A stretch of 64,000 bases of DNA, taken from NCBI GenBank assembly GCA_050115915.1, contig JASFPP010000001.1, forward strand, positions 3,116-67,115. The letters run 5' to 3'. The position numbers were made by a program, and so were the translations under genes. Under the pieces are notes generated by a model. It did not search any database and was not told where the DNA came from. It saw only the letters and a program-made list of their open reading frames with translations. How positions within the stretch are numbered: the first letter of the stretch is position 1; each line of letters opens with the position of its first letter. Source of the stretch: Candidatus Aminicenantes bacterium. GTDB taxonomy: Bacteria; Acidobacteriota; Aminicenantia; Aminicenantales; Aminicenantaceae. This document shows, piece by piece, positions 8,798-30,190 of the stretch.

Positions 8798-8890
8798 TCT
8801 CATATTCCCCTGATTTTACAGGATCTTCCAAAAAGGTTTTTTTGATCTTATCTTTTGCCTATTCGAGAGGTTTCGCTTCTGGATGAATGG

Positions 8891-9640
8891 TCAGGCCGTG
8901 CGTTTCACGTTTGATTTTGTGTAGCGTTTTTTGAACAGCAGGGCCATGACGAGTGTATCGAGCAGGATTAAAAAGTTCAGTTTGGTTTTCCCCCGGGTCC
9001 GGTCGATAAACTCGATGGGAACTTCTTTGATCGTGAAGTCCAGGAGGTGGGCTTTGTACAGGATCTCGAGCACAATGGAGGGATTTACGGATATGAGGTC
9101 ATCCAGGTCGATCTCCTCGAGGACCTTTCGTTTGAAACATCGAAAGCCCGAGGAGACATCGCGCACGGGAATGCGGAATTTGCGCCGGATGAAGCTGCGT
9201 ACAAAAAACGTGATGATCCGCCGCACTAGATTCCTGTCCTCATCCTTCCCGCCTTTGACAAACCTGGAGCCGATGACGAGGTCGTAATCCTTGCATGCCT
9301 CGAGGAGCGAAGGAATGTGTTTGGGCTGATGGGAGAGATCCCCATCCATTTCGACGACAAAATCAGGCCTGAGCTTGAGTGCTTCTTTGAATCCGTCGAT
9401 GCCGCCGGCCCCCCGGCCCTTGCGTTTTTTACGGATGAGGGCGTGGATTCTGTTGTCTGTCTCCCCCATCTTCCGGACGATTTCACCGGTTCCATCAGGA
9501 GAGTTGTCATCGGCGACCACAACAGAGAGATCCACCTCAACATCGAGCGCCAGAATCTCTTCGATGAGATCCTCGATATTCTCCCCTTCGTTATACGTTG
9601 GGATCATCACAACGGCTTTTCTTTTGAGTGAGTCTTCCAT
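8891..9640 (-). CDS. GT2 polyprenol-phosphate sugar synthase (dolichol-P-mannose synthase / Dpm1-like)
   Basis: VVMIPTYNEGENI and VVVADDNSPDGT (DxD-type) motifs. The track ORF extends to 9679, but that would overlap the upstream GT9 gene. The internal Met at 9640 gives a non-overlapping start. Confidence 0.8.
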   Translation of the reverse strand: MEDSLKRKAVVMIPTYNEGENIEDLIEEILALDVEVDLSVVVADDNSPDGTGEIVRKMGETDNRIHALIRKKRKGRGAGGIDGFKEALKLRPDFVVEMDGDLSHQPKHIPSLLEACKDYDLVIGSRFVKGGKDEDRNLVRRIITFFVRSFIRRKFRIPVRDVSSGFRCFKRKVLEEIDLDDLISVNPSIVLEILYKAHLLDFTIKEVPIEFIDRTRGKTKLNFLILLDTLVMALLFKKRYTKSNVKRTA

Positions 9641-9647
9641 CGGACGG

Positions 9648-10742
9648 TCAGATGAGTTTTTGGATCTCTTCAAAGACATGCTTTGGAGTGGTGGCCTCCA
9701 TACACTTCATGTCGTCACACGTCTGTTTGTAACACGGAGAGCAGTCCACTCCCGCATAAAGCTTGACTCCCCGGTCGTAGAGGTCGATCTCCTGCGGGCA
9801 GGTCGGCCCGAAGAGGGCGACGATTGTCTTCTCCTGGGCGATGGCCAGATGCATCCCCAGTGTATCCGAAGTAACGACTATGTCCATAAACGATAAAAAA
9901 CCAGCGAACTCGAGAAGAGAGTTGTCGGTCCCTGTGTTGTAGATCTTGTGTTTTGAGTTTTTTTCGATGAATTGGTTCAATTCTCTTTCTCTTTGTCCAC
10001 CCAACAGGAAAATATTGGCTTCGACGTTCTCGCTTAAATAATCGACCAGTGTTAAGTAGTTCAGAGGCGGCCACTGTTTGGTCTCGAACTTCACTCCCGC
10101 ACCCGTATTGAATCCTATGGCCACTCGTCCCTCGGAGATGTCATGCTTTTTAAAAAAATCTCTGGCTCTCGTTTTATGGGAATCCTCGATTGCGAACACA
10201 TAGGGGTCTCTTTTGTATTCGATCTCCGCAGTTTTAGCGATGATCTCCTGGTAGGTCATCGTGTTCTCTTTGAACTTGAGGTCGTCATCGATGCCCAGTT
10301 GATAGGCATATTCCGCCTCTGCATTAAGTGGAATAAGATTTCCCTGGGCATTCATCCCGAATCCGAATTTGTGCGGGCATTTGATAAGGGAGGCTACGGA
10401 GGTAGACGGAGGTTCCTTGTCGAGGGAGATGAGGACTTCGAACTCTTCGACAAGCAGCGGTATAATCGACTCCAGATTGTAGGACAACACCCTGTCGATA
10501 AAGGGATTGTTAAGCAAAAGATCCACACTTTCCTCATCCACAAGCCAGGAGATGTGGCTCTCGGGATATTTCCTCTTTACTCCATGGAGCAGAGCTGTTG
10601 TCCGCAGGACATCCCCCTGCGCCCGGCATTTGATGATCAGAATTTTTTTGGGGAAAGGTGTGTAGTGTGAGCATCCATCACAGAGAATCTTGAATTTACA
10701 GGGTTTGTCTCCTTTAAAGTATAAACAGTCGGCTTTGATCAC
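9648..10742 (-). CDS. GT9 family glycosyltransferase (ADP-heptose:LPS heptosyltransferase-like) with N-terminal Cys-rich extension
   Basis: KILIIKCRAQGDVLRTTALL block typical of RfaC/RfaF-type GT9. The 30-aa N-terminal extension carries CLYFKGDKPCKFKILCDGC (C-x8-C-x5-C-x2-C). Confidence 0.8.
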   Translation of the reverse strand: MIKADCLYFKGDKPCKFKILCDGCSHYTPFPKKILIIKCRAQGDVLRTTALLHGVKRKYPESHISWLVDEESVDLLLNNPFIDRVLSYNLESIIPLLVEEFEVLISLDKEPPSTSVASLIKCPHKFGFGMNAQGNLIPLNAEAEYAYQLGIDDDLKFKENTMTYQEIIAKTAEIEYKRDPYVFAIEDSHKTRARDFFKKHDISEGRVAIGFNTGAGVKFETKQWPPLNYLTLVDYLSENVEANIFLLGGQRERELNQFIEKNSKHKIYNTGTDNSLLEFAGFLSFMDIVVTSDTLGMHLAIAQEKTIVALFGPTCPQEIDLYDRGVKLYAGVDCSPCYKQTCDDMKCMEATTPKHVFEEIQKLI

Positions 10743-10832
10743 GTTTTTTCCTTGGGGTTATATTTGATTCCTATTTATGCCACAAATCCACCGTAAAAAC
10801 AACTCTCCATCGACCAAGGGAAAGTTATCCCT

Positions 10833-11522
10833 TTATCGCAATTTGGGATTTTGAGGGATTGGTTTTTTATGATTTTCAGGAGCTTTGATACAGGTATAAG
10901 CGATATGGGGATACCAGTAGCCCGAATGTTGGGGTATAGGCTCAACGGAAAAGCCGATACTTTGAAGCATGTCCAGATACTCTTTCTGGCTCCGGAAATA
11001 AAATCGTTCGCCCAGTGTGAAGCCGATCAGTTTGACGGCCAGAGTTTCCTGGAAGAGATTCCAGGCGTATTTCCACCGCGGCCTGGTGTCCATTTCTTTG
11101 ATGATAAGGATTCCTCCAGGCAGCAGGGATTGATAACATTTCCGGATGATGAGCTCATGTTTGTCATAGGGGATTAAATAGAGGACGTCGACGAGTGTGA
11201 AAACGTCCCCTTGGGGATAATCCGCCTCGACGACGTTGCCGATTTTATAGGTAATTTGGCCGGCATTGGTTTTTGTTGCGTTAGCGATTTCGATCTTTTT
11301 TTCGTCCAGGTCAAGCCCGATGATCTCTCTTTCAGGCGATCCCAAGCTCAAGATGTTGGGAAAAAGCCCATTGCCGCAGCCCAAGTCGACGATCGTTCCC
11401 TCTTTGGGAAAAAGTCCCTCTAGCTGGAGAAGAGGACAGATCTTCAGCTTGATCTTGAGATAGGCCCGGGTGATGGATCCAGCCTTGCTGTAGTGTTCGA
11501 ACAGCTCTTTTTTATCGATCAT
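10833..11522 (-). CDS. class I SAM-dependent methyltransferase
   Basis: Motif I VDLGCGNGLF and post-I acidic residue; 229 aa. Confidence 0.75.
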   Translation of the reverse strand: MIDKKELFEHYSKAGSITRAYLKIKLKICPLLQLEGLFPKEGTIVDLGCGNGLFPNILSLGSPEREIIGLDLDEKKIEIANATKTNAGQITYKIGNVVEADYPQGDVFTLVDVLYLIPYDKHELIIRKCYQSLLPGGILIIKEMDTRPRWKYAWNLFQETLAVKLIGFTLGERFYFRSQKEYLDMLQSIGFSVEPIPQHSGYWYPHIAYTCIKAPENHKKPIPQNPKLR

Positions 11523-11628
11523 GAGACGATTTTTGGTGAGACTCTTAGGTCGTTTATTGGAAGTTTTTGGAAGCGCATCCTTGACTGCTCAATGTTTGCA
11601 CAGTAAATGTTCATGGTTGATTAATCCC

Positions 11629-13515
11629 TCAATCCATGTAGCGGTTGTACCAGAACTGGAAAATGACAAGCGGCCACAACAACTGCCGGTGGTTGTGTGC
11701 GCCCTGGAGGTGCTCTCCCAGGATTCTTTCGATGGCAGCCGGATTGAAAAATCTGTGCTTGTTTAAATTTTCCGGGGAAAGGACATCCGTGACAAAATCC
11801 TTGAGTTCCTTCCTGATCCAGATGCCCAGGGGAATATCGAAACCGATCTTTTTTCGTGTCAAAATTTCGGGCGGAAGATAGGGGGCCATCGCTTTTTTCA
11901 GGATGTGTTTGGTCGTCAGCCCCTTGAGTTTCAAAGAACTGGGGATGGCCCTGGCATATTCGACGAACGTGTGGTCGAGGAAGGGCACGCGGATCTCCAG
12001 GGAGTTGGCCATGCTCATTCTGTCCGTTTTAACGAGGAGGTCGTCCTGGAGGTAGAGCTTGAGGTCCAGATACCCGATCCGGCTCACAGTGTCATTTGCC
12101 GAACAGTTGTCGAGATGGAAGGAGATGGGAGCGAATACGTCCTGGCTCAATTTTTCATGGACATCGGCCGCAAACAGTTTTTCCCTCTCCGAGGGTCCAT
12201 AAGCCCCCCACCAGATGAAGTTTGCAATTTCAGGAGGATAGTCGATACCCGATATGAATTTTTTAGCTTTGAATTCAAAGCTGAGCCTTTTTCTCGAAGC
12301 AGGAAGGATCTTGACGATGTTTTTAACGAGTCCGTCTCTTATGAACTTCGGCACTTTTCTGTAGAGCCGCGCCACCTGATAGGCTTTGTAGGTGTCATAC
12401 CCGGCGAAGAGCTCGTCCCCACCCTCACCAGCCAGCGCGACTGTGACATACTGACGGGCCAGTTTCGAGATCAAATAAGTGGGGATGACCGATGCATCGG
12501 CCAGCGGCTCATCCATATATTCGATCAGCTTGGGAACCAGTTTTCTCACGAGATTCGACTCCACGACAAATTCCTGGTGGTCGGTCTGGAAGCGGTCGGC
12601 CACGATCTTGGCGTATCCCAGCTCGTTAAACGTCTCCTCTTTGAAGCCAATGGAAAAGGTTTTAATCCTCGTATCCGCCACCTCGCTCATGAGCGCTGTA
12701 ATGGAGCTCGAATCCATCCCCCCGCTCAGGAAAACTCCCAGAGGCACATCGCTGATGAGTCGTCTCTTCACCGATCCTTTCAGCCGCGTGTAGATCTCCT
12801 CCATTATCACGGTTTCGTTTTTTGAGGAACCTAAACCATTGCCCTGTTGGATATCCCAGTATTGTTTGATCTGGACCATTCGATCGTTGACGATCATCAT
12901 ATGTCCTGGCAAGAGTTTTTTTATTCCCTTGAAAATCGTCTGGGGGGCAGGAATGTACTCGAAGCTGAAGAATCGCGACATCCCGTCAAAATCCAGTTCC
13001 CGGGGATAACCGGCCTCGAGGATGGATTTGATCTCGGAGGAAAAAACCAGGGAGTTGTCCGACTGCCAGTAGTGGAGCGGTTTTATCCCCAGCCTGTCCC
13101 TTACGAGAATGAGTGTGTTCGTTTTAAGATTCCAGAGAGCAATGGCGAACATGCCGTTCAACCGGGAGATAAAACTCTCCCCTTCCTCTTCGTAGAGATG
13201 GACGATCACTTCTGTGTCGGACTTTGTGGCGAAAGAGTGCCCCTTCTGGATGAGCTCTTCCCGTAATTCAGGAAAATTGTAGATCTCCCCATTATAGACC
13301 ACCCAGACGCTTTTATCCTCGTTCGCAATGGGCTGGTGTCCTGTAACAAGATCGATGATACTCAGGCGCCGCATCCCTAGAGCGACTTTGTTATCTCTGT
13401 AGTAGCCCTCATCGTCCGGACCACGGTGCGTCATCACAGCGCACATCTTTTTTGTCGTGTCCTCTGCTTCAGGACCCAGGCCGTTGAATCCATAAACGCC
13501 GCAGATGCCGCACAT
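11629..13515 (-). CDS. asnB: asparagine synthetase B (glutamine-hydrolysing amidotransferase)
   Basis: N-terminal nucleophile MCGICGVYGF, PP-loop SGGMDSS, 628 aa. It sits inside a glycan cluster, so it could be a WbpS-like sugar amidotransferase. Confidence 0.9.
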   Translation of the reverse strand: MCGICGVYGFNGLGPEAEDTTKKMCAVMTHRGPDDEGYYRDNKVALGMRRLSIIDLVTGHQPIANEDKSVWVVYNGEIYNFPELREELIQKGHSFATKSDTEVIVHLYEEEGESFISRLNGMFAIALWNLKTNTLILVRDRLGIKPLHYWQSDNSLVFSSEIKSILEAGYPRELDFDGMSRFFSFEYIPAPQTIFKGIKKLLPGHMMIVNDRMVQIKQYWDIQQGNGLGSSKNETVIMEEIYTRLKGSVKRRLISDVPLGVFLSGGMDSSSITALMSEVADTRIKTFSIGFKEETFNELGYAKIVADRFQTDHQEFVVESNLVRKLVPKLIEYMDEPLADASVIPTYLISKLARQYVTVALAGEGGDELFAGYDTYKAYQVARLYRKVPKFIRDGLVKNIVKILPASRKRLSFEFKAKKFISGIDYPPEIANFIWWGAYGPSEREKLFAADVHEKLSQDVFAPISFHLDNCSANDTVSRIGYLDLKLYLQDDLLVKTDRMSMANSLEIRVPFLDHTFVEYARAIPSSLKLKGLTTKHILKKAMAPYLPPEILTRKKIGFDIPLGIWIRKELKDFVTDVLSPENLNKHRFFNPAAIERILGEHLQGAHNHRQLLWPLVIFQFWYNRYMD

Positions 13516-13559
13516 CGTCTTCCTCTGGTTCCCTAATGTATCTGAACACCGTTAGAATA

Positions 13560-13845
13560 TCAATCCCCAACTCGGAGAGCGGAATTTCTGAAACTGTGAC
13601 GGTGATGAATCGCGTCGCGCTTTTGGAAGTTCCAATTGTGTGGTGGAGAAAACCGTATGGAGGGCCGGACGGGCATGGTACATCTCCCCAAGGGAGATGT
13701 GAGGGAGGCCCGGAATCGAGTGAAATTTCCTCGCTGGGGAAATTGAACGTGTTTTCGAAATCAACAATTGGAGCTTTCGGAAAGTCATTCATCACAGTTT
13801 TGGAAAAGTTAGAGACGCGGAAGGAAAACGTGTGCGGGACATTGA
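13560..13845. repeat. copy B of the paralogous ~270-bp conserved element (reverse orientation relative to copy A)
   Basis: Reverse complement aligns ungapped with 2850..3115. It has the identical 22-mer (13639..13660 on the reverse strand) and the perfect 9-bp palindrome ACATCTCCC-caa-GGGAGATGT (13680..13700). It contains track ORF 13469..13867 (-) whose middle 55 aa align with the copy-A ORF. Confidence 0.6.
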
Positions 13846-13849
13846 GGTG

Positions 13850-13858
13850 TGGTATAAT
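13850..13858 (+). promoter_or_regulatory. extended -10 box TGGTATAAT about 29 nt upstream of the B12-radical-SAM gene start
   Basis: TGnTATAAT match, same TGGTATAA(T/A)TTG context as upstream of the 669..2798 gene. Confidence 0.4.
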
Positions 13859-13887
13859 TTGAGCCAAATTTTAAACGGACTGTTATT

Positions 13888-15276
13888 TTGAACGCAAACG
13901 AAGTCATCCTGCTCAACCCGCCGGGGGATAAACTCTACATCAGGGACTATTACTGCAGCTTTTCCTCCAAGGCCAACTACTACTGGCCGCCCCAGGACCT
14001 CATCTACCTCAGCGGAATTCTGGATGGAGAGTATAACGTCCGAGTGATCGATGCTATTATCAATAAAATGTCGGAGGAAGCTGTATTCAATGAGATCGTG
14101 GAATCCAGCGCCCGGGCTTTGATTTTCACAACCGGGACGGCAACGATGCAATCGGACCTCCGGTTGATGGAGCGGATCAAAGCCAAGACCGGTATAAAAA
14201 TTGTGGCCAGTGCTGGGATTTTGCCTTTTGTCGGGGAAGATCTTCTCGAGCGGCATCCCTATGTGGATGCCGTCATTCTGGATTTCACGAGCCCGAATAT
14301 TCGTGTTTTTCTCAAAGAAAACGGACAGATGGATTCACCTCTCCTGGGGCTTATCACAAGGAAAAATGGACAGTTTCTGAAGAGCACAGAGATGCCGCCG
14401 CGGACTTATGCTGTGCCTGTCCCCCGCCACGACCTCTTCGATTTTAAAAAATACCGGATCCCGATCGCCCGGAGATTCCCGTTCACTGTTGTTGTGACGT
14501 CGCTCGGCTGCCCTCACAGCTGCGGATTCTGCACGGCTGGTGCTTACGGTTACAGAACGAGGGATGTGGATGGAGTGATCGAAGAGCTTCGTTTGCTGAC
14601 TCGACTGGGTGTCAAGGAGATCCTATTCCAGGATCCCACGTTCACAATCAACACAAACCGTGTGGTCGAGATCTGCAGCAAAATGGTCGAAAACGCGTTC
14701 GATTTTACATGGAGCTGCAACGCCCACATCAAATCTTTCAACGAGGATAAGATCAAACACATGAAGGCAGCGGGATGCCATACGGTGTCGTTGGGCATCG
14801 AGAGCGGGAGCGATGAAATCCTCGAGAAGTATTCCAAAAAGATCACGACAGACGAGATTAAGAGTACGATTCGCATGCTGAACGCTTATAAGATCCATGT
14901 GCTGGGCTATTTTATCATCGGGCTTCCGGGGGATGACGAGGAATCCATCCGGAAGACGATCGATCTGGCCAAGGAGCTGGATATCGATTTTGCTTCATTT
15001 GCCATCGCTACTCCGGATGTGGGCACTCCACTGAGAGAAGAGGCCCTCCAGAAAGGATGGATGCGTCCCGAGGAGGATGTGTTCGACAGCACGGACTTCC
15101 CTGTGCTTGAGGCCGGAACTCTGTCGAAGGAGGAGGTCTGGAAGCTCAGAAACCAGGCAGTCCGGGAGTTTTACCTCAGGCCTTCTTATCTGTTCAAGAT
15201 GATCCGCCAGATCCGGAGTTTGCGCGATATCCAGGTGGCCGTCTCGAACGCCCTATCGCTTTTCCGAAAATCATGA
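13888..15276 (+). CDS. B12-binding radical SAM protein (HpnJ-like class B rSAM)
   Basis: N-terminal cobalamin-binding Rossmann region followed by the radical SAM motif GCPHSCGFCTAG; 462 aa. The ORF starts at TTG per the track. Confidence 0.85.
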   Translation: MNANEVILLNPPGDKLYIRDYYCSFSSKANYYWPPQDLIYLSGILDGEYNVRVIDAIINKMSEEAVFNEIVESSARALIFTTGTATMQSDLRLMERIKAKTGIKIVASAGILPFVGEDLLERHPYVDAVILDFTSPNIRVFLKENGQMDSPLLGLITRKNGQFLKSTEMPPRTYAVPVPRHDLFDFKKYRIPIARRFPFTVVVTSLGCPHSCGFCTAGAYGYRTRDVDGVIEELRLLTRLGVKEILFQDPTFTINTNRVVEICSKMVENAFDFTWSCNAHIKSFNEDKIKHMKAAGCHTVSLGIESGSDEILEKYSKKITTDEIKSTIRMLNAYKIHVLGYFIIGLPGDDEESIRKTIDLAKELDIDFASFAIATPDVGTPLREEALQKGWMRPEEDVFDSTDFPVLEAGTLSKEEVWKLRNQAVREFYLRPSYLFKMIRQIRSLRDIQVAVSNALSLFRKS

Positions 15277-16121
15277 AAAAAGTCATAATCAATGCCGATG
15301 ACTTCGGACTTGTCCAGGGAGTGAACGAGGGAATAATCAAAGCCCATAAAGAGGGCATCCTGACAAGCACAACACTTATGGCCAACATGCCGGGATTCGA
15401 TCAAGCCGTTGAATTGGCGGGGGCCCATCCGAATTTAGGCGTGGGTGTCCATCTCAATATCCTGAGAGGACAGCCCCTCTCACCGGTCGAGAAAGTGGAG
15501 AGCCTTCTCTCCAAAGACAGATGTTTTGTTCCAAGTGTGCCGCACCTCCTCCGTCGAATCTTGCTTAAACGTATAGGCATCGATGAGGTCGAGCGGGAGT
15601 TCAGGGCACAAGTGGAGAAGGTGAAGAATACCGGTCTCTCCCCCAGCCACATCGATAGCGAGAAACACATCCATATGATCCGGCCACTTTTCCGGATTGT
15701 CCTGAAGATAGCAAAGGAGTACAGGATCAACAGGGTACGGTTTATCCAGGAATGCTGTCTCTTCTTACGGCCCGGACAGATGTTGAAATCGATGCTCATC
15801 TCCCTGTCTTCAGCCTCCTTGAAAAAGAGGATGACGAATGAGGGGGTCCGATCACCTGACAGGTTTTATGGCGTTTGCGACAGCGGCCGGATTACCGCCG
15901 CTAAACTTAAAAAGGTCCTTCACAGAGTGAAGGAGGGTGTTACGGAAATTATGGTTCATCCTGGATTTATCACACAAGACATGTTAGAGTTAGAAACGAG
16001 AATCGGGCCTTATTACATCAATAAATACAGAGAGAAAGAGTTGAGTGCATTGCTCGATGAACGTTTGCCAGATGTCATTGCTGATCTGGGGATTCGGTTG
16101 ATAAATTTTAGTCATTTATGA
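15273..16121 (+). CDS. YdjC/ChbG-family carbohydrate deacetylase (HpnK / NaxD-like)
   Basis: MKKVIINADDFGL..GVNEGI..AHKEGILTSTTLMANMP is the YdjC signature; 4-nt start/stop overlap with the rSAM gene. Confidence 0.85.
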   Translation: MKKVIINADDFGLVQGVNEGIIKAHKEGILTSTTLMANMPGFDQAVELAGAHPNLGVGVHLNILRGQPLSPVEKVESLLSKDRCFVPSVPHLLRRILLKRIGIDEVEREFRAQVEKVKNTGLSPSHIDSEKHIHMIRPLFRIVLKIAKEYRINRVRFIQECCLFLRPGQMLKSMLISLSSASLKKRMTNEGVRSPDRFYGVCDSGRITAAKLKKVLHRVKEGVTEIMVHPGFITQDMLELETRIGPYYINKYREKELSALLDERLPDVIADLGIRLINFSHL

Positions 16122-16136
16122 TCGGTCAAAGATCCT

Positions 16137-17129
16137 ATGGATGAAAAACATATAAATCCGCAGATTTCGATCGTTGTTCCGTTTTATAACGAAGAAGACA
16201 ACATCAAAGAGCTCTATGAACAACTCACCCGGGTGCTTGGAGTGTTGGGCGCGTCGTACGAGCTGATCTTTATCGATGATGGGAGCACGGACCGCAGTCA
16301 TGACATATTGATTAAATTGTTCGCATCGGATAAAACCGTCAAAGTCATCCGGTTGCGTAAAAACTTCGGTCAAACGGCCGCTCTTCAGGCCGGATTCGAC
16401 CATGCCAGGGGAAAGATCATTATATCTATGGACGGGGACCTGCAGCATGATCCCGCAGATATCCCTAAACTATTGGCTCCAATAAGTGAGGGATTCGACA
16501 TTGCCTCTGGATGGAGAAAAGAACGGAAGGATAATTTTCTCCTGAGACGTTTTCCCTCCTGGGTGGCGAACCGCATCATGCGCCTCCTCTCTGGAGTTAA
16601 AATCCACGATTTTGGCACAACCTTTAAGGCCTACAGGAGAGATGTCCTCGAGGGGATCCGGCTTTACGGAGAGCTTCACCGTTTTATCCCTGCCCTTATC
16701 AGCCGGACGGGCGTAAAGATCACAGAGGTTCCGATCAAGAATGTGGTCCGCCAGAAAGGGAGATCCAAGTACGGCCTTTCGCGTATCCGCAGAGTGCTCT
16801 TCGACCTGATAACGGTCAAATTCATCATCAGCTTCATCGATCGGCCGCTGCAGTTTTTCGGACTGATCGGTATGATCCTCGGAGGGATCGGATTCACCAT
16901 CGCTCTTATCCTGACAGTGGGGTTTTACTTTTTTGAGTGGTCGATCCGGGACAACCTGGGGAATTTAATACTTGGTGTGTTCCTGATGATCCTGGGGCTC
17001 CAGTTCGTAATGACCGGCCTGCTGGCAGAGATCATCTCGCGGATCTATTTCACCACACACGAGATGCGGATCTACTCTGTGGCGGAGTTGAAGTCCCACG
17101 AACCTCCCGGGAGTGAAGAAGGGAGCTGA
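16137..17129 (+). CDS. GT2 polyprenyl-phosphate hexosamine/hexose transferase (ArnC/GtrB/FlmF2-like)
   Basis: ISIVVPFYNEEDNI, IFIDDGSTDRS and SMDGDLQHDP motifs, plus two C-terminal TM helices as in ArnC/GtrB. Confidence 0.8.
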   Translation: MDEKHINPQISIVVPFYNEEDNIKELYEQLTRVLGVLGASYELIFIDDGSTDRSHDILIKLFASDKTVKVIRLRKNFGQTAALQAGFDHARGKIIISMDGDLQHDPADIPKLLAPISEGFDIASGWRKERKDNFLLRRFPSWVANRIMRLLSGVKIHDFGTTFKAYRRDVLEGIRLYGELHRFIPALISRTGVKITEVPIKNVVRQKGRSKYGLSRIRRVLFDLITVKFIISFIDRPLQFFGLIGMILGGIGFTIALILTVGFYFFEWSIRDNLGNLILGVFLMILGLQFVMTGLLAEIISRIYFTTHEMRIYSVAELKSHEPPGSEEGS

Positions 17130-17155
17130 CCCAGGCCCTGGAAGAGGATAGGCTG

Positions 17156-19267: not shown

Positions 19268-19337
19268 GGAATGAATCAAACAATCGAAACTTATCAATAT
19301 GAATGAGCGAACGGAGAAGAAACGAAAGGAGGGTGGG

Positions 19338-20090
19338 ATGAACAACGATTTTCGGGGGAGTGTGCAGAAGGAGCTCATCGATAAAAGGGGATCTTTTTTT
19401 TCCAAGTATTCCTCACTGTTTCTTGGCAGGAAAAATCTCTTTTCGTTTCTCAGGTATGAGTGTGTGCTTCTGCTCTTCTCAGGGGTGCCCGGGGCGCTGG
19501 GCTTCTTCCTACGGAAAGTTTTCTACCCTGGCTTATTCAAACAGGTTGGGAAAGGCGTGGTCTTCGGACGGAACATTACCCTACGGCATCCCAAGAAGAT
19601 CTCTATAGGCGCGAATACCTTCATCGACGACAACGTGGTGCTCGACGCGAAGGGCGAGGAAAACCAGGGGATAATCATCGGAGAAAATGTCTATATCGGC
19701 CGGAATACCATCTTGAGCTGCAAAGAGGGTTCGATATCCCTAGATGATTTCTGCAACATCTCGGCCAACTGTATGCTCCTCTCAGAGACGGATATCCGTT
19801 TAGGAAAATACTGCTTTTTAGCGGGGCAATGCTACCTCGTGGCCGGCGGGAATCACACATTCGATGACATATCCGTTCCGATCATGTTCCAGCCCTCCTA
19901 TTCCAAAGGGGGAATCACCGTCGGTGAGGATGTTTGGCTGGCAGCCGGCGTTATTGTCCTGGATGGGATCAATGTCGGCAAAGGGACCGTTGTTGGCGCA
20001 GGATCCGTAGTCACCGAATCCCTCCCTGAGTATTGTATTGCTGTCGGAAGTCCCGCCCAAAAGATCAAAGACAGAAAGATTGCCGTTTAA
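19338..20090 (+). CDS. left-handed beta-helix (hexapeptide-repeat) acyl/acetyltransferase
   Basis: Repeated [LIV]GxxxxI hexapeptides (IGANTFIDDNVVL, IGENVYIGRNTIL, VGEDVWLAAGVIV, VGKGTVVGAGSVV). Start placed at the Met with a GGAGGG Shine-Dalgarno (track start 19299). Confidence 0.7.
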   Translation: MNNDFRGSVQKELIDKRGSFFSKYSSLFLGRKNLFSFLRYECVLLLFSGVPGALGFFLRKVFYPGLFKQVGKGVVFGRNITLRHPKKISIGANTFIDDNVVLDAKGEENQGIIIGENVYIGRNTILSCKEGSISLDDFCNISANCMLLSETDIRLGKYCFLAGQCYLVAGGNHTFDDISVPIMFQPSYSKGGITVGEDVWLAAGVIVLDGINVGKGTVVGAGSVVTESLPEYCIAVGSPAQKIKDRKIAV

Positions 20091-20111
20091 ATCAATTTCG
20101 ACGAGAAAGAA

Positions 20112-21350
20112 CTAAGATTTTTTTGTGTGAGTTTTTTCTTCCAGTTCCTGTATGACAACCGAGCAGGCCATGTTCCCCACCACGTTGACACATGTCCGGA
20201 CCATATCGAGTAGCCTCTCGACACCCAGTATGAGGGCGATCCCCTCGAGAGGGATGCCCAACTGCTTCAGGACCAGAGCCAGGGCGATAATCCCGGCCAT
20301 GGGGACGCCGGCTGCTCCGATGGAGGCCATAACGGCCATGAGAACGATCGTGACCTGACCGGTTAAGCCCAAGGGGATGCCGTATATCTGGGCGATGAAG
20401 ACCGCAGACACTCCCTGGTAGAGCGCTGTGCCGTCCATGTTGACAGTCGAACCCAGGGGAATCACGAAGCTGGAGTACTCGCGTTTGACTCCGATGTGCT
20501 CGACACTCTCCATGGCAACGGGAAGGGTAGCCATGGAGCTGGAGGTACTGAAGGCGATGATGATGGCTTCTTTGACAGCTCTGAAGAAATAGAGGGGATT
20601 GGTCCGCCCGAGAACGCTGACAGCTAAGCTGTTAAAGGTGATCCCGTAGAGGATTAATCCCCCTATGACCACAGTGCAGTACTTGAGCAGGGTGAACAGG
20701 ATATCCATCCCGAATCGTCCGATCACTGCTGCGCTGAGGGCGAATACGCCGTAGGGTGCCACTTTCATGACCAAGTGGACGACTTGAATGAAAATATCAT
20801 TGAGGGCATCCAGCATCTTGACCAGGAAATCGGATTTCTCCGTCGGGATGAGCGTGAGAACGATGCCGAAGAGGATGGCCATAAATATGATCTGGAGCAT
20901 GTTGCCGTCGATGAAGGCCTTGACGGGATTCTTGGGGACGATATTGACCAGGATCTCGACGATGGATGGTTTTTCTTCCATCCGTTTGATCCCATCCTGG
21001 GCTCTGGCCTCATAGTTCTCCATGAGTTGGGTTTGGACCGTCTCGGGCAGGCCCTCGCCGGGATTGGCGGTGTTGGCCAAAAAGAGACCCACGCAGATGG
21101 CGATGATCGTTGTGATGACAAAATAAAGGGACGTCTTGGCCCCGATCCGGCCTAGCTTTTTGATGTCTCCCAGGCTGGCAGTCCCCAGCATCAGGGAGAC
21201 GAACACCAGGGGGACCACGATCATGGTGATCAGGTTGAGAAAGACGGTCCCGATGGGTTCGATGAACAAGACCTTTTCTTTAAAAATAAGACCGGCAATG
21301 ATCCCAAGGATGAGTCCGAGGAAGATTTTGGTGTGGAGTTTGATTTTCAT
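20112..21350 (-). CDS. dicarboxylate/amino acid:cation symporter (DAACS family, GltP-like)
   Basis: 412 aa with 8+ TM segments and re-entrant loop motifs (SSSMATLP, NMDGTALYQG) typical of glutamate/aspartate symporters. Confidence 0.85.
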   Translation of the reverse strand: MKIKLHTKIFLGLILGIIAGLIFKEKVLFIEPIGTVFLNLITMIVVPLVFVSLMLGTASLGDIKKLGRIGAKTSLYFVITTIIAICVGLFLANTANPGEGLPETVQTQLMENYEARAQDGIKRMEEKPSIVEILVNIVPKNPVKAFIDGNMLQIIFMAILFGIVLTLIPTEKSDFLVKMLDALNDIFIQVVHLVMKVAPYGVFALSAAVIGRFGMDILFTLLKYCTVVIGGLILYGITFNSLAVSVLGRTNPLYFFRAVKEAIIIAFSTSSSMATLPVAMESVEHIGVKREYSSFVIPLGSTVNMDGTALYQGVSAVFIAQIYGIPLGLTGQVTIVLMAVMASIGAAGVPMAGIIALALVLKQLGIPLEGIALILGVERLLDMVRTCVNVVGNMACSVVIQELEEKTHTKKS

Positions 21351-21371
21351 GGATACCGCCTGTTCTCCCTC

Positions 21372-22130
21372 CTATTGCTTCCGGGCCTTGTATATAAAAT
21401 TGGATGTGCTGTCGAATCGGCCGGATGCCGGGAGAAACTTTTCTATCGTGAATCCCCTCTCCTCCAGGAATTCTTTGATCTCTTCCGGGTAGTAGTGATG
21501 CCGTATCGGAACAAAATACCAATCCATGATAAGCTCTTCCAGCTTTTCCCCCTTTCGGGATTTTTCCCGTTTTTTGAAAAAGAAAACGACGGGAGAGAGA
21601 AACACGGCAAGGATTTTGGAGAGTGCTTTCCATGATTTTTTTGGCGTCCGCAGCAGTGTTTTCCGGATGATCTCGTGGATAAAGGTCGCTTTGGTTTTGG
21701 TGTAGACGGCAAGGAGTAGGGAGCCCCCCTTTTTCAGGACTCTGATCAGTTCTTCGATTGCGCCGAAAGGGTCGGTGGTGTGGTGGGCCGTACCCCAGGC
21801 CCAGACTATATCGAAACTCTCATCCGCAAAGGGAAGCTCGAGCATGTCCTCTTTCTGGAACTGTGCTGTTTCCAAGTTGAATCTGTCTTTTAAGGTCTTT
21901 GCTGTTTCGAGGCTTCCCTCGCTGATGTCGATCCCGGTGACATTGCCCGCACCGTTTTTTGCGAAAATGATACTGAATATGCCTGTTCCGCAACCCGCGT
22001 CGAGAACTTTTTTCCCGGCCACCTCTGTGCCGGAATAAAAGATCTTCCAGTGATTTTCCGATTCCTCATATTCGGGAATATACTCCGTCCAAACGACGTC
22101 ATAGAATTTACTGACTTTTTCTTTATCCAT
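21372..22130 (-). CDS. class I SAM-dependent methyltransferase
   Basis: Motif I VLDAGCGTGIFS, 252 aa. Confidence 0.75.
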   Translation of the reverse strand: MDKEKVSKFYDVVWTEYIPEYEESENHWKIFYSGTEVAGKKVLDAGCGTGIFSIIFAKNGAGNVTGIDISEGSLETAKTLKDRFNLETAQFQKEDMLELPFADESFDIVWAWGTAHHTTDPFGAIEELIRVLKKGGSLLLAVYTKTKATFIHEIIRKTLLRTPKKSWKALSKILAVFLSPVVFFFKKREKSRKGEKLEELIMDWYFVPIRHHYYPEEIKEFLEERGFTIEKFLPASGRFDSTSNFIYKARKQ

Positions 22131-22223
22131 CTGAGCTTGTCTCTGCCTTTTTAGCCTATCGATTCATGTTTTAAAATAGAAGATATCTTATAGACTTATC
22201 TCTTGCAAGTCAATCGGGATGAG

Positions 22224-23204
22224 TTAAAGCCAGTTGTGGGCTTTCGACCACTCCACGGTTTGTAAAATTCCCTCCGCAAAGCTGATCTTTGGGGAATAGC
22301 CAAGCTCTTGTTTGGCTTTTTGGATCGCCAGCGGTTTGGGGTGGATGAAAAAGCTCAGTCTCCCTCGGGTAAGAGGCGCTTCTTTTTTAAAAAGGGCAAA
22401 GGTCCTCTCCAGGACTGATGCAGCCATTATCACGGGAAAAAGGGGAAGGGAGATCGGCGGGATCTTGTTTCCCGCTGTCGATGCGATTGTGGCTACGATA
22501 TCCTTCACACTTAAGACTTCGCTCCCGGCGATGTGATAAATTTGGCCCTTCCGCCCCATCTCTGCGCACAGGAAAACGCCCTCCACCAGGTCGTCGATGT
22601 GGACGGGCGTCTGCTGCGCATTCCCCTTTGTCACGAGCAAAAATCTTTTTTTGGCGATAGCTTTTATGAGTTTAAATGTTCGCCGATCCCCGGGCCCATA
22701 GGCCCACCCCGGCCTGACGATGGCGATGTCCATTCCCTCTTCTGCAAATTGCCGAGCGATGTTCTCTCCCTCGAGCTTGCTCCGGTCATAACTGTTTTGG
22801 GGGTTTGGAACGAAGTCCTCGTTGGCCGCTTCGCCCCCTTCAACTGATCCCAAAACACCCGCAGAGCTGAAATGGACAGTTTTTGGGATACCGGCTGCTT
22901 TTGCAGCTTGGAGCACGTTTTTTGTCCCCTCAGCGTTTATACGAAAAAATTCGTTTTCTGAGAGGATCGATGCGCCCAAGGCGGCTGCACAGTGGAAGAG
23001 AAGATCCACTCCCTCAAAGATTCCTTCCAGAGTCACCGGGCTTGTGATGTCGCCTTTAACGACCTCATAGCTTTGACTGTTTGACCCCTTTCTTCCCATT
23101 GGACGTGTGTGCTGGAAGACACGGACATTCCATTTTTTTCGAAGACATCCCTCGATCAGGGCACGGCCGATGAATCCCGATGCTCCTGTGATAAACGCTC
23201 TCAT
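22224..23204 (-). CDS. NAD-dependent sugar epimerase/dehydratase (SDR family)
   Basis: Rossmann motif ITGASGFIGRAL at the N-terminus (start moved to the Met directly preceding it; track start 23231), plus a YxxxK catalytic region. Confidence 0.85.
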   Translation of the reverse strand: MRAFITGASGFIGRALIEGCLRKKWNVRVFQHTRPMGRKGSNSQSYEVVKGDITSPVTLEGIFEGVDLLFHCAAALGASILSENEFFRINAEGTKNVLQAAKAAGIPKTVHFSSAGVLGSVEGGEAANEDFVPNPQNSYDRSKLEGENIARQFAEEGMDIAIVRPGWAYGPGDRRTFKLIKAIAKKRFLLVTKGNAQQTPVHIDDLVEGVFLCAEMGRKGQIYHIAGSEVLSVKDIVATIASTAGNKIPPISLPLFPVIMAASVLERTFALFKKEAPLTRGRLSFFIHPKPLAIQKAKQELGYSPKISFAEGILQTVEWSKAHNWL

Positions 23205-23217
23205 CGTGATAAGACCC

Positions 23218-24384
23218 TTATCCCTTCGCACCCATAGCTGTATCGAGAACTTGAGCTATTTTATCTTTATAACGGGGATACGTGTAGTCACGGTCGGCAT
23301 TTTCCTTAGCTGCCCTCGCCCTTTCTTGAGCTCTGCTGTCAAAAAGGGCATAGGCGATTCCCTCAGCCATACACTCCGCATCGGGCTCGACAAGGACGGA
23401 TATCTGGTCGTTCAGGACCTGCGTGTGTGTCCAGAGGTTCGTGGCCACGAGCGGCTTTCCTGATTTGAGAAAGGAGTAGATTTTGAGCGGGGTGTTCGTT
23501 CCGGATAGACGGGGCGAGACCAAGACATCAGCCAGGCCGATAAAGAGAGGCATTTGTGCGGGAGGAACCTGTCCTGTAAAAAAGACTTTCTCAGCGATCC
23601 CCAGTTCGCGGGCCTTTTCCTTTTCCCTCTCGACAGCAGCCGGACTCTCTCCCACGAGCAGGAAGACGACTCTGTCATTCTGGAATTGGGATGCGGCCTC
23701 CAATAAAAGCGATATCCCCTGGTAAGGCTGGAAATTACCCGCATAAAGCACGATTTTTTTATCCTTGGGGACAAATTCTTCACGTTTTTGTCTGATCTCC
23801 TCTTGAGTGAATTCCTCTGTTTCGAAATCGATGAAATTTTCGAGGAGAATTGCCTTTGCAGCATAGCCCTCTTTTTCGACCTGTTTGAGGAGATCGAGGC
23901 AGATCACGATGATTGCCCGCGAATTCTTCAGGATGAACCGCTCCATGCTTATAAAGATTCTTTTCAGAAGCCTGGATCGCGAAAAATTGAAATTCTCCAG
24001 CTGTTGGGGAAGACTGGAATGCATATCGTAGATGTGGGGTGTTCGCGATAGCTTGCTCAGGATAACTCCAAAAAGAGCCCCCTCTTCATGAGAGAAGACG
24101 AGATCGTACCTGTTTCGCAATAGCAATCCGCTTGCCTTGAGAAAAAGGAGAAAATCGAGGGGTATCTTTTTGAGCGAAGGACCGATCTTGATCTTTTTTA
24201 TGAAAAAAAGATTGGGGATCCTGGAGATCTTAAGGTTTTTGATCTCTTTGTCCTCTCCCAGGTGATAGGTCACAAGATCGACATCGTGTCCGAGGTCGGA
24301 GAGGGCCCTGATTCTTTGGTAAACGCTGATGGGTGTTCCCCGTGGCTGGAAGAAGGGTTCCGGGGCGAGCATTAGAATTTTCAT
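23218..24384 (-). CDS. GT4 family (GT-B fold) glycosyltransferase
   Basis: 388 aa, MKILMLAPEPFFQPRGTPISVYQR N-terminal domain and C-terminal EX7E-like region (LVSPRLSGTNTPLKIYSFLKSGKPLVATN). Confidence 0.8.
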   Translation of the reverse strand: MKILMLAPEPFFQPRGTPISVYQRIRALSDLGHDVDLVTYHLGEDKEIKNLKISRIPNLFFIKKIKIGPSLKKIPLDFLLFLKASGLLLRNRYDLVFSHEEGALFGVILSKLSRTPHIYDMHSSLPQQLENFNFSRSRLLKRIFISMERFILKNSRAIIVICLDLLKQVEKEGYAAKAILLENFIDFETEEFTQEEIRQKREEFVPKDKKIVLYAGNFQPYQGISLLLEAASQFQNDRVVFLLVGESPAAVEREKEKARELGIAEKVFFTGQVPPAQMPLFIGLADVLVSPRLSGTNTPLKIYSFLKSGKPLVATNLWTHTQVLNDQISVLVEPDAECMAEGIAYALFDSRAQERARAAKENADRDYTYPRYKDKIAQVLDTAMGAKG

Positions 24385-24395
24385 TGATCTTCAGC

Positions 24396-25385
24396 TTATT
24401 CGGATGACGGATCTCGTTCAGAGTCAAAGATCTCCCGTACGAAATAGATCCTTTTGTCTACCGACTCGTGGTAGGCGCGGACCATGATCTCTGCCAAAAG
24501 CCCCAGAGTGATGAACTGGATCCCGATAACAATGAGCAATATGGCCAACAGCAGCAAGGGGCGTCCTGAGATGCCCACCTTGAGAATGAGACGCTGATAG
24601 GAGAGGTATAAGCCAATGAGGAATCCGACGATACCGCTGGCCAGCCCGAATACGCCGAATATCTGGAGAGGTCGTGTGGAATAACTCAAGAGAAATTTGA
24701 CTGTGAGAAGGTCGAGGATGACTTTGACGAACCGGAACACCGTGTATTTGGACTTTCCGTGCTTCCTTGGCCGGTGGTTAACTTCAACCTCAGCTATAGA
24801 AACCCCGATATTGCTGGCAATGGCTGGAATGAACCTGTGCAGCTCTCCGTAAAGATTGATGTTTTTGATGACCTCTTTTCGGAAAGCCTTCAGAGTGCAC
24901 CCAAAATCATGAAGCTTGATGTGCGTGATCTTGGAGATAAGCCAATTGGCCATGGCCGAGGGGATGCGACGTGTCAAAAGGCGGTCCTTTCTTTTTTTCC
25001 TCCATCCGCTGACAATATCGTAACCCTTGTGGATCTTTTCGAGAAGAAGAACGAAGTCTTGAGGATCATTCTGAAGGTCTGCATCCAAGGTGATGATCAC
25101 CTCTCCTTTGGCATAATCGAAACCAGCGGAAAGGGCTGCCGTTTGGCCGAAATTTTTTCTCAGCCGGATAACTTTCACCTTGGGATCCTCCTTTTGGATG
25201 CCCCGCAACACCGGAAAAGTCAAATCCCAGCTTCCGTCATCGACAAAAATGATCTCATAGGAGAGGTTCAGTCCTATTGAGGCTTTCGTGATCTCTTCAT
25301 AGAGGTCTGGCAGGTTTTTCTCCTCGTTAAAAACCGGCACTACGATGGAAAGTGCAAGAGGCTCCTTGGGATTCATTGCGGTCAA
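24396..25385 (-). CDS. GT2 polyprenyl-phosphate sugar transferase (ArnC/GtrB-like), second copy
   Basis: LSIVVPVFNEEKNL, IFVDDGS, LDADLQNDPQD motifs and two C-terminal TM helices. It is paralogous to 16137..17129. Confidence 0.8.
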   Translation of the reverse strand: MTAMNPKEPLALSIVVPVFNEEKNLPDLYEEITKASIGLNLSYEIIFVDDGSWDLTFPVLRGIQKEDPKVKVIRLRKNFGQTAALSAGFDYAKGEVIITLDADLQNDPQDFVLLLEKIHKGYDIVSGWRKKRKDRLLTRRIPSAMANWLISKITHIKLHDFGCTLKAFRKEVIKNINLYGELHRFIPAIASNIGVSIAEVEVNHRPRKHGKSKYTVFRFVKVILDLLTVKFLLSYSTRPLQIFGVFGLASGIVGFLIGLYLSYQRLILKVGISGRPLLLLAILLIVIGIQFITLGLLAEIMVRAYHESVDKRIYFVREIFDSERDPSSE

Positions 25386-28377: not shown

Positions 28378-28597
28378 ATCCATGCACGCGGTACGGGATG
28401 TCCTCATTGTTTAATGGAGAAAACCGTTTGAAGGGATAAACGGGCGCGTGGCGTCGCCCATGGGAGGTGCCCCATGTTTGAAGGAAGTTACTTCGCAGGG
28501 GAAAGGGATCGGAATTTCGTTTTCGATATCATACTACAGGGGCACTTGAGATAACCGTGGATCTGATTTGGTTTTGCGAGGGACTTTGGAAGTTGGG

Positions 28598-30184: not shown

Positions 30185-30190
30185 GGCGAA

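Follow-up and report, generated by a model that had tools for sequence, protein, structure and literature searches.

Three-component glycosylation systems combine a polyprenyl-phosphate-sugar synthase, a flippase and a glycosyltransferase (GT) of the GT-C fold, and auxiliary enzymes remodel the lipid-linked donor (PMC11127046). In the Arn (ArnC/ArnD/ArnT) and Gtr systems, a GT2 enzyme with a C-terminal transmembrane (TM) hairpin makes a lipid-monophosphate sugar that a GT-C then transfers outside the cytoplasm, and systems of this type tailor the donor on its carrier, through the deformylase ArnD or, in pentofuranose systems, through epimerases (PMC11127046). The YdjC enzyme NaxD deacetylates undecaprenyl-phosphate-N-acetylgalactosamine (Und-P-GalNAc) for lipid A modification (PMC11279074), and lgmA, lgmB and lgmC are required for lipid A glucosamine (GlcN) in Bordetella (PMC4993483). 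We examined a 64,000-nucleotide stretch of a Candidatus Aminicenantes (Acidobacteriota) genome (contig JASFPP010000001.1; the whole stretch is hereafter the window) that holds, at 8891-25385, a block of 14 tightly packed genes, among them a YdjC-GT2-GT-C operon. On balance, this block is probably a lineage-wide envelope-glycan locus organized around a NaxD/Arn-like, three-component-type periplasmic glycosylation operon with extra tailoring enzymes, acting on a glycan associated with lipopolysaccharide (LPS). Aminicenantes are abundant in anoxic sediments and the subsurface and are uncultured, and the locus would give a first testable outline of a conserved surface-glycan pathway in this group.

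Two further precedents concern GlcN chemistry. On lipid-linked N-acetylglucosamine (GlcNAc) in hopanoids, glycosyl transfer by HpnI and deacetylation by the YdjC-type HpnK are followed by a step of the B12-domain radical S-adenosylmethionine (SAM) enzyme HpnJ, a proposed ring contraction of bacteriohopanetetrol (BHT)-glucosamine, so that the route runs from BHT-GlcNAc through BHT-GlcN to BHT cyclitol ether (PMC13459092, PMC5462960). AprD4, the radical SAM diol dehydratase of apramycin C3' deoxygenation, works with the reductase AprD3 in a secondary-metabolite pathway on a soluble pseudodisaccharide and deoxygenates, by dehydration, the GlcN ring of paromamine (PMC5461906).

Gene Content and Organization of the Locus

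Families were assigned with Pfam hidden Markov models (HMMs), all Pfam matches of the 14 genes lying above the gathering score; further comparisons used NCBIfam/TIGRFAM equivalog cutoffs, sequence searches of the PDB and, for the GT-C, an AlphaFold2 (AF2) model and Foldseek (Table 1). The gene families and coordinates given in an earlier note on this DNA are all present with strong HMM support. That note was for the most part a correct but ordinary annotation of glycan genes; the families it named are right, and it left the YdjC and GT-C genes inside its coordinates unnamed, missing the lipid-carrier logic of sugar addition (ArnC-like GT2, YdjC and GT-C).

The block ends coincide exactly with gene ends, the stop of GT2a at 8891 and the start of GT2c at 25385. 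Its genes follow one another almost without spacers in three transcription units: a left unit on the minus strand, a divergent central operon on the plus strand and a right unit on the minus strand that converges on the central operon. Neighbours in the central operon overlap by 4 nt, as the YdjC start does with the radical SAM stop, or lie no more than 31 nt apart; GT2a and GT9 overlap by 32 nt. In the spacer between asnB and the radical SAM gene, an extended -10-like element, TGGTATAAT, lies about 30 nt upstream of the radical SAM TTG start. The spacer contains no conserved open reading frame (ORF), and it is only 57-184 bp long in the relatives L002 and L003. No Rfam match was obtained anywhere in the 64-kb window, this spacer included, and a cobalamin riboswitch or other regulatory RNA ahead of the B12-domain radical SAM gene was accordingly not found. 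Promoter-like sites occurred at chance level in a scan (15 found, 15.1 expected); terminator-like sites were in mild excess (28 found, 18.2 ± 4.0 expected) but fall inside genes and not at gene ends, and no inference is drawn from them.

Table 1. Genes and other features of the block, of the exporter region and of related loci. Coordinates are window positions unless a locus is named.
Feature	Coordinates	Strand	Evidence
GT2a, soluble Dpm1/DPMS-like polyprenyl-phosphate glycosyltransferase, 262 aa	8891-9679	-	PF00535 9e-25
GT9-family glycosyltransferase, heptosyltransferase-like, 364 aa	9648-10742	-	PF01075 3e-20, 73 bits
MT1, class I SAM methyltransferase, 229 aa	10833-11522	-	PF08241 + PF00891 (O-methyltransferase-type matches)
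AsnB-type glutamine-dependent amidotransferase, 628 aa	11629-13515	-	PF00733 5e-106, GATase_7
Divergent intergenic spacer asnB/radical SAM operon, 372 bp, presumed promoters	13516-13887		sequence inspection
B12-binding-domain radical SAM enzyme, 462 aa, first gene of central operon	13888-15276	+	PF04055 2e-28
YdjC-family carbohydrate deacetylase, 282 aa	15273-16121	+	PF04794 6e-67
GT2b, ArnC/GtrB-type polyprenyl-phosphate glycosyltransferase, 330 aa	16137-17129	+	full-length ArnC match
GT-C-fold glycosyltransferase, PMT_2, 703 aa	17156-19267	+	PF13231 3e-8
Hex, hexapeptide-repeat (left-handed beta-helix, LbH) acetyltransferase, WcaF-like, 263 aa, last gene of central operon	19299-20090	+	PF00132 3e-12
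SDF/GltP-like symporter, 412 aa, doubtful member	20112-21350	-	PF00375 7e-128
MT2, class I SAM methyltransferase, 252 aa	21372-22130	-	PF13847 + PF08241 ~4e-26
Extended short-chain dehydrogenase/reductase (SDR), NAD-dependent epimerase/dehydratase, HpnA-like, 335 aa	22224-23231	-	PF01370 6e-40
GT4 glycosyltransferase (GT-B, retaining), 388 aa	23218-24384	-	PF00534 8e-23 + PF13439
GT2c, second ArnC/GtrB-type polyprenyl-phosphate glycosyltransferase, 329 aa	24396-25385	-	ArnC model 228 bits
Wzm permease	35208-36029 (ATG at 35208)	+	PF01061
Wzt ATPase with Wzt_C	36030-37310	+	PF00005 + PF14524 (102 bits)
RfaE domain II	37805-38290	+	TIGR02199 181.0 bits (cutoff 181.5)
Wzm, Wzt, DUF2061, RfaE-II run	35208-38290	+	
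Second ~790-aa GT-C in other clades	L006 11454-13829; L040 16307-18685; L045 18447-20798; L058 10521-12902		

The Central Operon Resembles Lipid A Modification Systems

GT2b matches solved polyprenyl-phosphate glycosyltransferases over its full length, first ArnC (9hwj, 3.5e-55), then GtrB (5ekp, 1e-38) and dolichol-phosphate-mannose (Dol-P-Man) synthase (DPMS, 4e-27), and it carries two C-terminal TM helices, the hairpin of the ArnC/GtrB class. The YdjC protein belongs to the same superfamily as NaxD and HpnK; it retains the catalytic motifs NADDFG, GVHL and HIDSHxHxH, aligned with those of EF_3048 (2i5i) and of a chitooligosaccharide deacetylase (7vi8), and its NCBIfam scores are 193 bits for HpnK (cutoff 233) and 178 bits for ChbG (cutoff 227). 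Hex, at the end of the operon, scores 94 bits against a WcaF-family subfamily model (cutoff 192).

In the AF2 model of the GT-C (pLDDT 87.8, pTM 0.87), residues 1-385 form a multi-helix membrane domain, residues 390-560 a periplasmic alpha/beta domain and residues 570-695 a beta-sandwich. Foldseek ranked ArnT first (5ezm, E 2.6e-9, TM-score 0.58), followed by Emb proteins, ALG9, AglB and STT3, with Pmt4 in 26th place. The beta-sandwich alone matches carbohydrate-binding modules (CBMs), namely CBM35, CBM16 and a porphyran-binding CBM (E ~1e-4, TM-score 0.5-0.63). An invariant D44-E45 pair follows TM1, which is presumably where GT-C enzymes have their catalytic acidic residues. Publicly the protein is annotated as 'glycosyltransferase family 39 protein'. 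An exhaustive profile search of 1.84 billion representatives (50%-identity clusters) yielded, at E<=1e-30, 273 clusters and, at E<=1e-10, 1999; of the 150 matches listed, only a few full-length representatives (P0046, P0361, P0365, P0371, P0389) cover the C-terminal beta-sandwich, and most of the others end near profile position 550. The window-type architecture with its CBM-like domain is narrow in distribution and gives no functional clue of its own.

The same three enzyme classes stand in one operon in the Francisella/Acinetobacter FlmF2-NaxD-FlmK system and in Bordetella LgmABC, a likeness by enzyme class (PMC11279074, PMC4993483). The window differs from both in that its GT-C, of 703 aa, has an extra alpha/beta domain and the CBM-like beta-sandwich, neither of them covered by ArnT 5ezm (solved chain of 537 residues), and is not of the ArnT family (GT83) by sequence; the operon moreover adds the radical SAM enzyme and Hex, and AsnB is obligatorily linked. 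The CBM-like domain in the model hints that the acceptor is more likely a glycan than a lipid A phosphate. The gene order YdjC-GT2b-GT-C would match that of Francisella, which we take to be naxD-flmF2-flmK. Compared with the Arn and Gtr systems, with which it shares a hairpin-bearing GT2 and a GT-C, the window locus has no flippase gene, its GT2b and GT2c score 195 and 228 bits against an ArnC cutoff of 529, and no described system has its tailoring set of YdjC, radical SAM enzyme and LbH acetyltransferase. The window locus is conserved across the whole class, whereas Gtr systems vary between serotypes or are carried by phages.

Conservation of the Block Across the Class

The comparison set comprised 54 related loci, set against the window by tblastn: six contexts from metagenome or genome assemblies and 48 loci from GTDB species genomes, and the block is syntenic in most of them. 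A common order recurs down to 45% GT-C identity: a radical SAM/SPASM protein, rsmA, GT2a, GT9, MT1 and AsnB; then (radical SAM) YdjC, GT2b, GT-C and Hex; then (SDF) MT2, SDR, GT4 and GT2c; and finally a response regulator, accD and folC. Co-conservation was counted in non-duplicate loci with a GT-C at least 44% identical to that of the window and a sufficiently long flank. AsnB is the neighbour with the tightest linkage (29/30 loci), and the rest of the left unit follows closely (GT2a 24/29, GT9 23/29, MT1 24/29). In the central operon, YdjC was retained in 32/38 loci, GT2b beside the GT-C in 34/39 and Hex after it in 34/41, the radical SAM gene in 14/34; the order YdjC-GT2b-GT-C held in 32-34 of 38-39 loci, and YdjC-GT2b-GT-C-Hex with a divergent AsnB was kept down to 45% GT-C identity. 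Counts for the right unit were 22/30 for MT2, 18/26 for the SDR, 17/26 for GT4, 16/26 for GT2c and 13/36 for the SDF symporter. Whether the genes are scattered in relatives had been set beforehand as a test, and these counts show strong co-conservation.

The earlier note had spoken of an island, a view that did not hold. The GC content of the block (0.47-0.52) is the same as that of its flanks, and the Jensen-Shannon distance of codon usage to the flank pool is 0.050 for the block and 0.047 for the flank genes themselves. No tRNA was found in the 64-kb window and no mobility gene among the scanned window genes. Among the 120 GT-C homologs listed, every taxon-bearing source name is Aminicenantes or Acidobacteriota. 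Horizontal acquisition was therefore rejected, the composition, codon usage, tRNA and distribution tests all being negative, and the block is an ancient, chromosomally fixed, class-wide core synteny of Candidatus Aminicenantes. Many GTDB-representative metagenome-assembled genomes (MAGs) with the block (L007, L010-L012, L014, L018, L020 and others) are titled 'uncultured Eubacteriales' or 'uncultured Clostridia'; their gene content and up to 78% identity to the window suggest that these titles are wrong.

Gene order by itself proves little, because rsmA, accD and folC are kept too. In the rearranged loci L006, L040, L045, L047 and L052, however, the glycan genes stay together and the housekeeping neighbours are lost, which supports a shared pathway that includes AsnB and MT1. 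L045 has a single tightly packed minus-strand operon, DUF362/Fer4-radical SAM-YdjC-GT2b-(Trm112-fused methyltransferase)-AsnB-MT1, with the GT-C divergent from it and GT9-GT2a further along the GT-C's strand; MT1 thereby shares an operon with AsnB and radical SAM-YdjC-GT2b. L006 and L044 have AsnB beside YdjC-GT2b-radical SAM-GT-C', where GT-C' is a 791-aa paralog. The radical SAM gene directly adjoins GT9-GT2a in L047 and L052, and GT9 remains paired with GT2a even in L045, L047 and L052. L040 and L058 show GT-C-x-methyltransferase-radical SAM beside a second PMT-type GT-C of ~790 aa. In the contexts anchored on the radical SAM gene and not on the GT-C (L006, L057, L058), the radical SAM gene lies beside a GT-C of the same family in 3/3. 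A jointly made, decorated cell-surface glycoconjugate, as the earlier note had envisaged, is the best reading, L045 placing AsnB and a methyltransferase in the radical SAM-YdjC-GT2 operon.

Partner Units

GT2a has as its best solved relative an archaeal Dol-P-Man synthase (5mlz, 2.5e-30) and no C-terminal TM helices, and GT2c is 49% identical to GT2b, with two to three C-terminal TM helices. The closest solved relatives mark each of the three GT2s as a polyprenyl-phosphate transferase, in agreement with the 'three bactoprenol-type GT2s' of the earlier note. The 'GT9 heptosyltransferase' stood as to family (PF01075, 73 bits against a cutoff of 22), and GT9 stays below the equivalog cutoffs for heptosyltransferases I, II and III (81<185, 71<135, 55<170). 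Its PDB matches are a GT9 protein (3tov, 3e-17) and WaaF (1psw, 9e-6), the latter to the C-terminal donor domain only; an ADP-heptose-type donor is plausible.

AsnB has the Cys2 nucleophile and an SGGMDS PP-loop. Its best NCBIfam match is the exopolysaccharide (EPS)-associated XrtA/PEP-CTERM amidotransferase (615 bits, cutoff 817), and in the PDB the hydroxyamidotransferase TsnB9 (7ylz, 5e-68) is closer than E. coli AsnB (8e-49). Amidation of a sugar carboxylate would be a reasonable role for it. In L005 a second pair of GT2 and AsnB-type genes (20258-22106; 38% identity to the window AsnB) lies 8 kb from the main block, and AsnB paralogs are repeatedly tied to glycosyltransferases in the Aminicenantes lineage.

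In the right unit, the order SDR-GT4-GT2c is kept wherever GT4 is present (17/26 loci). The SDR scores 168 bits for HpnA (cutoff 368) and has its best PDB match in the oxidoreductase 3wj7 (4e-30), followed by dTDP-glucose 4,6-dehydratases and UDP-GlcA 4-epimerases; it is an extended SDR without clear specificity. GT4 gave no PDB sequence match at 1e-8. The SDF symporter lies on the opposite strand in L017 and L048 and is found in only 13/36 loci; it is a variable passenger whose membership is doubtful, and its proposed role as a dedicated substrate supplier (the DAACS symporter of the earlier note) is unsupported.

The Radical SAM Enzyme

The radical SAM enzyme has its CxxxCxxC motif at residues 208-215, as CPHSCGFC. 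Its best NCBIfam match is HpnJ (188 bits, cutoff 578), followed by AprD4 (144), PhpK-type methyltransferases (136) and BchE (123), and its best solved relative is AprD4 (6fd2, 3e-30). At least four distinct arrangements place the gene beside YdjC/GT2b/GT-C or GT9. Adjacency to YdjC is confined to the window's clade, the gene being missing from the 10-kb flanks or placed differently elsewhere, and because its position and presence vary in this way it would be an accessory, clade-variable tailoring step. In L045 a DUF362 and 4Fe-4S ferredoxin-domain protein (8741-9895, minus strand) heads the radical SAM-YdjC-GT2b-methyltransferase-AsnB-MT1 operon and is a candidate for a dedicated electron donor to that enzyme. 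A second PMT/PMT_2 GT-C (~790 aa; Table 1) and a Trm112-fused methyltransferase occur near the radical SAM gene in other Aminicenantes clades; the window has neither.

The precedents of HpnJ and AprD4, both acting on glucosamine moieties, together with the operon position beside YdjC single out a deacetylated lipid-linked amino-sugar as the most probable substrate. A soluble enzyme, as this one is predicted to be, would have to act before flipping. The likeness to the HpnI/HpnK/HpnJ route lies in the shared chemical sequence of glycosyl transfer, YdjC-type deacetylation and a B12-domain radical SAM step; the window differs in its ArnC-type GT, in the presence of the GT-C, in having no hopanoid core genes nearby and in scores below the cutoffs. 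It differs from the AprD4 pathway in that no AprD3-like partner adjoins the radical SAM gene, and the SDR of the block occurs in loci without the radical SAM gene, too. Transfer by the GT-C requires an anomeric centre, which a true HpnJ-type contraction would abolish; deoxygenation, epimerization or C-methylation would suit a donor role better than ring contraction.

As a tentative proposal, which we hold to be less probable than not, the enzyme might carry out HpnJ-/AprD4-type chemistry (ring rearrangement, deoxygenation or C-methylation) on polyprenyl-phosphate-GlcN, after which the CBM-bearing, ArnT-fold GT-C would install the sugar on an outer-membrane glycolipid. If so, the locus would represent a class of envelope sugar modification not described before and would connect, in evolutionary terms, hopanoid head-group chemistry (HpnI/K/J) to LPS modification of the Arn/NaxD type, AsnB amidation and methylation acting on the same residue. 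Radical SAM tailoring of an amino-sugar linked to a lipid carrier was described for no three-component system in the literature that we found. Besides this step, the distinctive traits of the locus are the CBM-bearing GT-C, confined to few 50%-identity clusters, and the obligatory AsnB link.

Proposed Pathway and Alternative Explanations

In the pathway that we favour, GT2b would transfer an N-acetylhexosamine from a nucleotide sugar to polyprenyl phosphate at the cytoplasmic face; the enzyme class is clear from the full-length matches, and the sugar is inferred. YdjC would then deacetylate the product to a lipid-linked hexosamine, as NaxD does with Und-P-GalNAc and HpnK with BHT-GlcNAc, a role that its family and operon point to. 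This amino-sugar may, in the window's clade, be remodelled in the cytoplasm by the B12-domain radical SAM enzyme, and the WcaF-like acetyltransferase may add an acetyl group. A flippase, perhaps encoded outside the block, would move the donor across the membrane, and the 703-aa GT-C, ArnT-like in fold, would transfer the sugar to a periplasmic glycan acceptor; the CBM-like beta-sandwich argues for a carbohydrate in that position. The partner units would build or decorate the same glycoconjugate: GT2a (DPMS-like) and GT9 (heptosyltransferase-like) as one pair, AsnB and the O-methyltransferase-like MT1 by carboxylate amidation and methylation, and GT2c, GT4, SDR and MT2 by supplying a second lipid-linked donor and a cytoplasmic glycosylation step. 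We take the likeliest target to be the lipid A-core region of LPS or else a conserved glycan linked to LPS, with a class-conserved polysaccharide exported by Wzm/Wzt as the second candidate; that the gene content is conserved class-wide speaks more for a conserved, core-like structure than for a variable polymer.

Several observations weigh against this reading. Sugar, acceptor and radical SAM chemistry alike are matters of inference, and the literature searched gave nothing on the chemistry of the Aminicenantes envelope. No protein reaches the equivalog cutoff for ArnC, HpnJ, HpnK, HpnA or heptosyltransferase I/II/III, GT2b standing at 195 bits where ArnC demands 529. The GT-C gave no sequence match to ArnT, in NCBIfam (1e-5) or in the PDB (0.01), so that its relation to ArnT is one of fold only (TM-score 0.46-0.58). 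The block has no flippase gene (GtrA, ArnE/F-SMR or MATE), 14/14 genes being assigned to other families, and no unassigned gap or intergenic region in it is large enough for a flippase or small membrane-protein gene; the third component of three-component systems is a flippase, which could be encoded outside the locus. AsnB also passes the generic asn_synth_AEB model (524>267), and a housekeeping role kept by synteny is possible for it. Finally, rsmA, accD and folC are conserved alongside the block, and part of the co-conservation could be inherited synteny.

A different product would follow if the block built or decorated a distinct polymer, made in the cytoplasm, capped (e.g. by methylation) and exported by Wzm/Wzt, with RfaE-II supplying ADP-heptose to GT9; we regard this as possible but rather doubtful. 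Wzm and a Wzt with the carbohydrate-binding Wzt_C domain are present, as in E. coli O8/O9a-type ABC-dependent O-polysaccharide export, and the C-terminal domain predicted for Wzt by the earlier note proved to be Wzt_C (PF14524). Wzt, including Wzt_C, is 76-100% identical among the best 120 homologs, which suggests a conserved substrate and hence a conserved exported glycan in the class. RfaE-II immediately follows wzt in L055 and L056, where atp operon, NPPY methyltransferase, wzm, wzt and rfaE-II succeed one another as in the window, and the long-range order from block to wzm/wzt persists in distant relatives. Decoration of ABC-transporter-dependent O-polysaccharides by three-component systems is known (PMC11127046), and the CBM-like domain of the GT-C is compatible with a polysaccharide acceptor. 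Yet 10 kb of housekeeping genes (response regulator, accD, folC, atpFHAGDC and a TrmN6-like NPPY methyltransferase) separate the block from wzm/wzt, and conserved long-range order is what plain synteny predicts. Unlike the O8/O9a loci, the window has no backbone GTs, terminator or initiating transferase next to wzm/wzt, which sit after the atp operon: no glycosyltransferase adjoins wzm/wzt in the window, where a peptidase C26 gene is also a neighbour, or in L055/L056, the same being true of every genome examined, and no initiating phosphoglycosyltransferase, polymerizing (multi-domain) GT or WbdD-like chain terminator was found among the scanned genes of the 64-kb window. The methyltransferase packed against wzm was rejected as a chain-capping enzyme, its NPPY motif being typical of TrmN6/HemK amino-methyltransferases and not of sugar O-methyltransferases. 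Of the earlier proposal on Wzm/Wzt and RfaE-II, the genes are thus real and highly conserved, and the link to the block is one of proximity; an ABC-transporter-dependent model for the block is possible, with conserved distance as its sole basis, and so is ordinary LPS core synthesis with no extra polymer. Taken as a whole, the earlier interpretation is partly supported.

Protein O-glycosylation, in which the GT-C would move a lipid-linked sugar to Ser/Thr of secreted or S-layer proteins as in actinobacterial Ppm1/Pmt, is unlikely. Pfam PMT_2 on the GT-C, PMT on some homologs, the public GT39 annotation and the presence of Pmt4 among the structural matches speak for it, as do GT-C paralogs beside AMIN-domain and GDSL proteins in other clades; but the best fold match is ArnT, with Pmt4 only 26th, the model has no MIR-type domain, its additional domain resembles a CBM, as does that of Emb and AftD, which act on polysaccharides, and co-location of GT9 and YdjC parallels LPS-modifying systems. 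We give very little credence to the view that the genes have no joint function and that unrelated envelope and metabolic genes (a housekeeping asnB, a glutamate/aspartate transporter) are adjacent through inherited synteny only. The unrelated rsmA, accD, folC and atp genes are indeed conserved in the same neighbourhood, AsnB fits the generic asparagine synthase model and the SDF symporter is variable; against this, L006, L040, L045, L047 and L052 keep the glycan genes and lose the housekeeping neighbours, AsnB and MT1 are joined into the radical SAM-YdjC-GT2b operon in L045, and in the window the gene overlaps and short gaps, of 4-31 nt, point to co-transcription. A hopanoid (bacteriohopanepolyol) side-chain pathway, with HpnJ-, HpnK- and HpnA-like proteins making BHT-glucosamine or a cyclitol-ether head group, deserves scarcely any credence. 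It has in its favour that the best NCBIfam matches of three proteins are HpnJ (188 bits), HpnK (193) and HpnA (168) and that GT2a weakly matches HpnB (50 bits). All of these lie below the equivalog cutoffs (578, 233, 368 and 379), however; the operon GT2 is ArnC-type (3.5e-55, full length), with HpnI absent from the GT2b matches; the Hpn pathway has no role for a GT-C transferase; no SHC, HpnH or HpnG was found in the 64-kb window; and true HpnI/HpnJ domains are reported only in genomes with SHC and HpnH (PMC12324291). The sub-threshold scores, the ArnC-type GT and the presence of the GT-C led us to reject it as the principal explanation. Surveys of Acidobacteriota MAGs for hpnJ, hpnK and hpnA by name or BLAST could pick up such sub-threshold paralogs (13888-16121, 22224-23231) and over-call cyclitol-ether capacity (compare PMC5462960, PMC12324291).

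Other Features of the Window

In most relatives the left border of the block is formed by a radical SAM/SPASM protein (3140-4117, minus strand) and rsmA (4151-4969, minus strand). Between rsmA and GT2a, the window carries an insert relative to L002, L004 and L057 (5220-8797), encoding a class V aminotransferase, a 273-aa protein (6877-7698) and a PD40/TolB-like beta-propeller. A homolog of the 273-aa protein sits inside the block, between MT2 and SDR, in many other genomes, where it has weak PP-loop ATPase matches (ThiI/QueC/DUF7411), and the protein may be a further member of the pathway. A GDSL lipase/acylhydrolase of ~700 aa also recurs (window 669-2798, minus strand; L040 6551-8656; L058 928-3012); in L040 and L058 an AMIN-domain protein and a GT-C paralog come right after it.

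On the far side of the block, the atp operon runs unbroken into the NPPY methyltransferase, wzm, wzt, DUF2061 and rfaE-II (29642-38290, plus strand), the genes overlapping or nearly abutting. It is odd to find a glycan exporter appended to an atp operon; L055 and L056 carry this string too, though without DUF2061. A 354-aa ORF without a family match (28534-29598, minus strand) is probably a shadow ORF. Two plus-strand ORFs at 28667-29083 and 29083-29664 (138 and 193 aa) correspond in length and location to the pair before atpH in L055 (138 aa without a family match and 186 aa with ATP-synt_B) and in L056 (138 and 201 aa, both ATP-synt_B). A second envelope-related run, at 49867-54477 on the minus strand, comprises a divergent polysaccharide deacetylase (PF04748), an S41 peptidase, an M23 peptidase and an LPG_synthase_TM protein. 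The LPG_synthase_TM family, as we understand it, also holds the hopanoid-associated HpnL and flippase-like domains, and this protein could presumably be a flippase candidate for lipid-linked donors.

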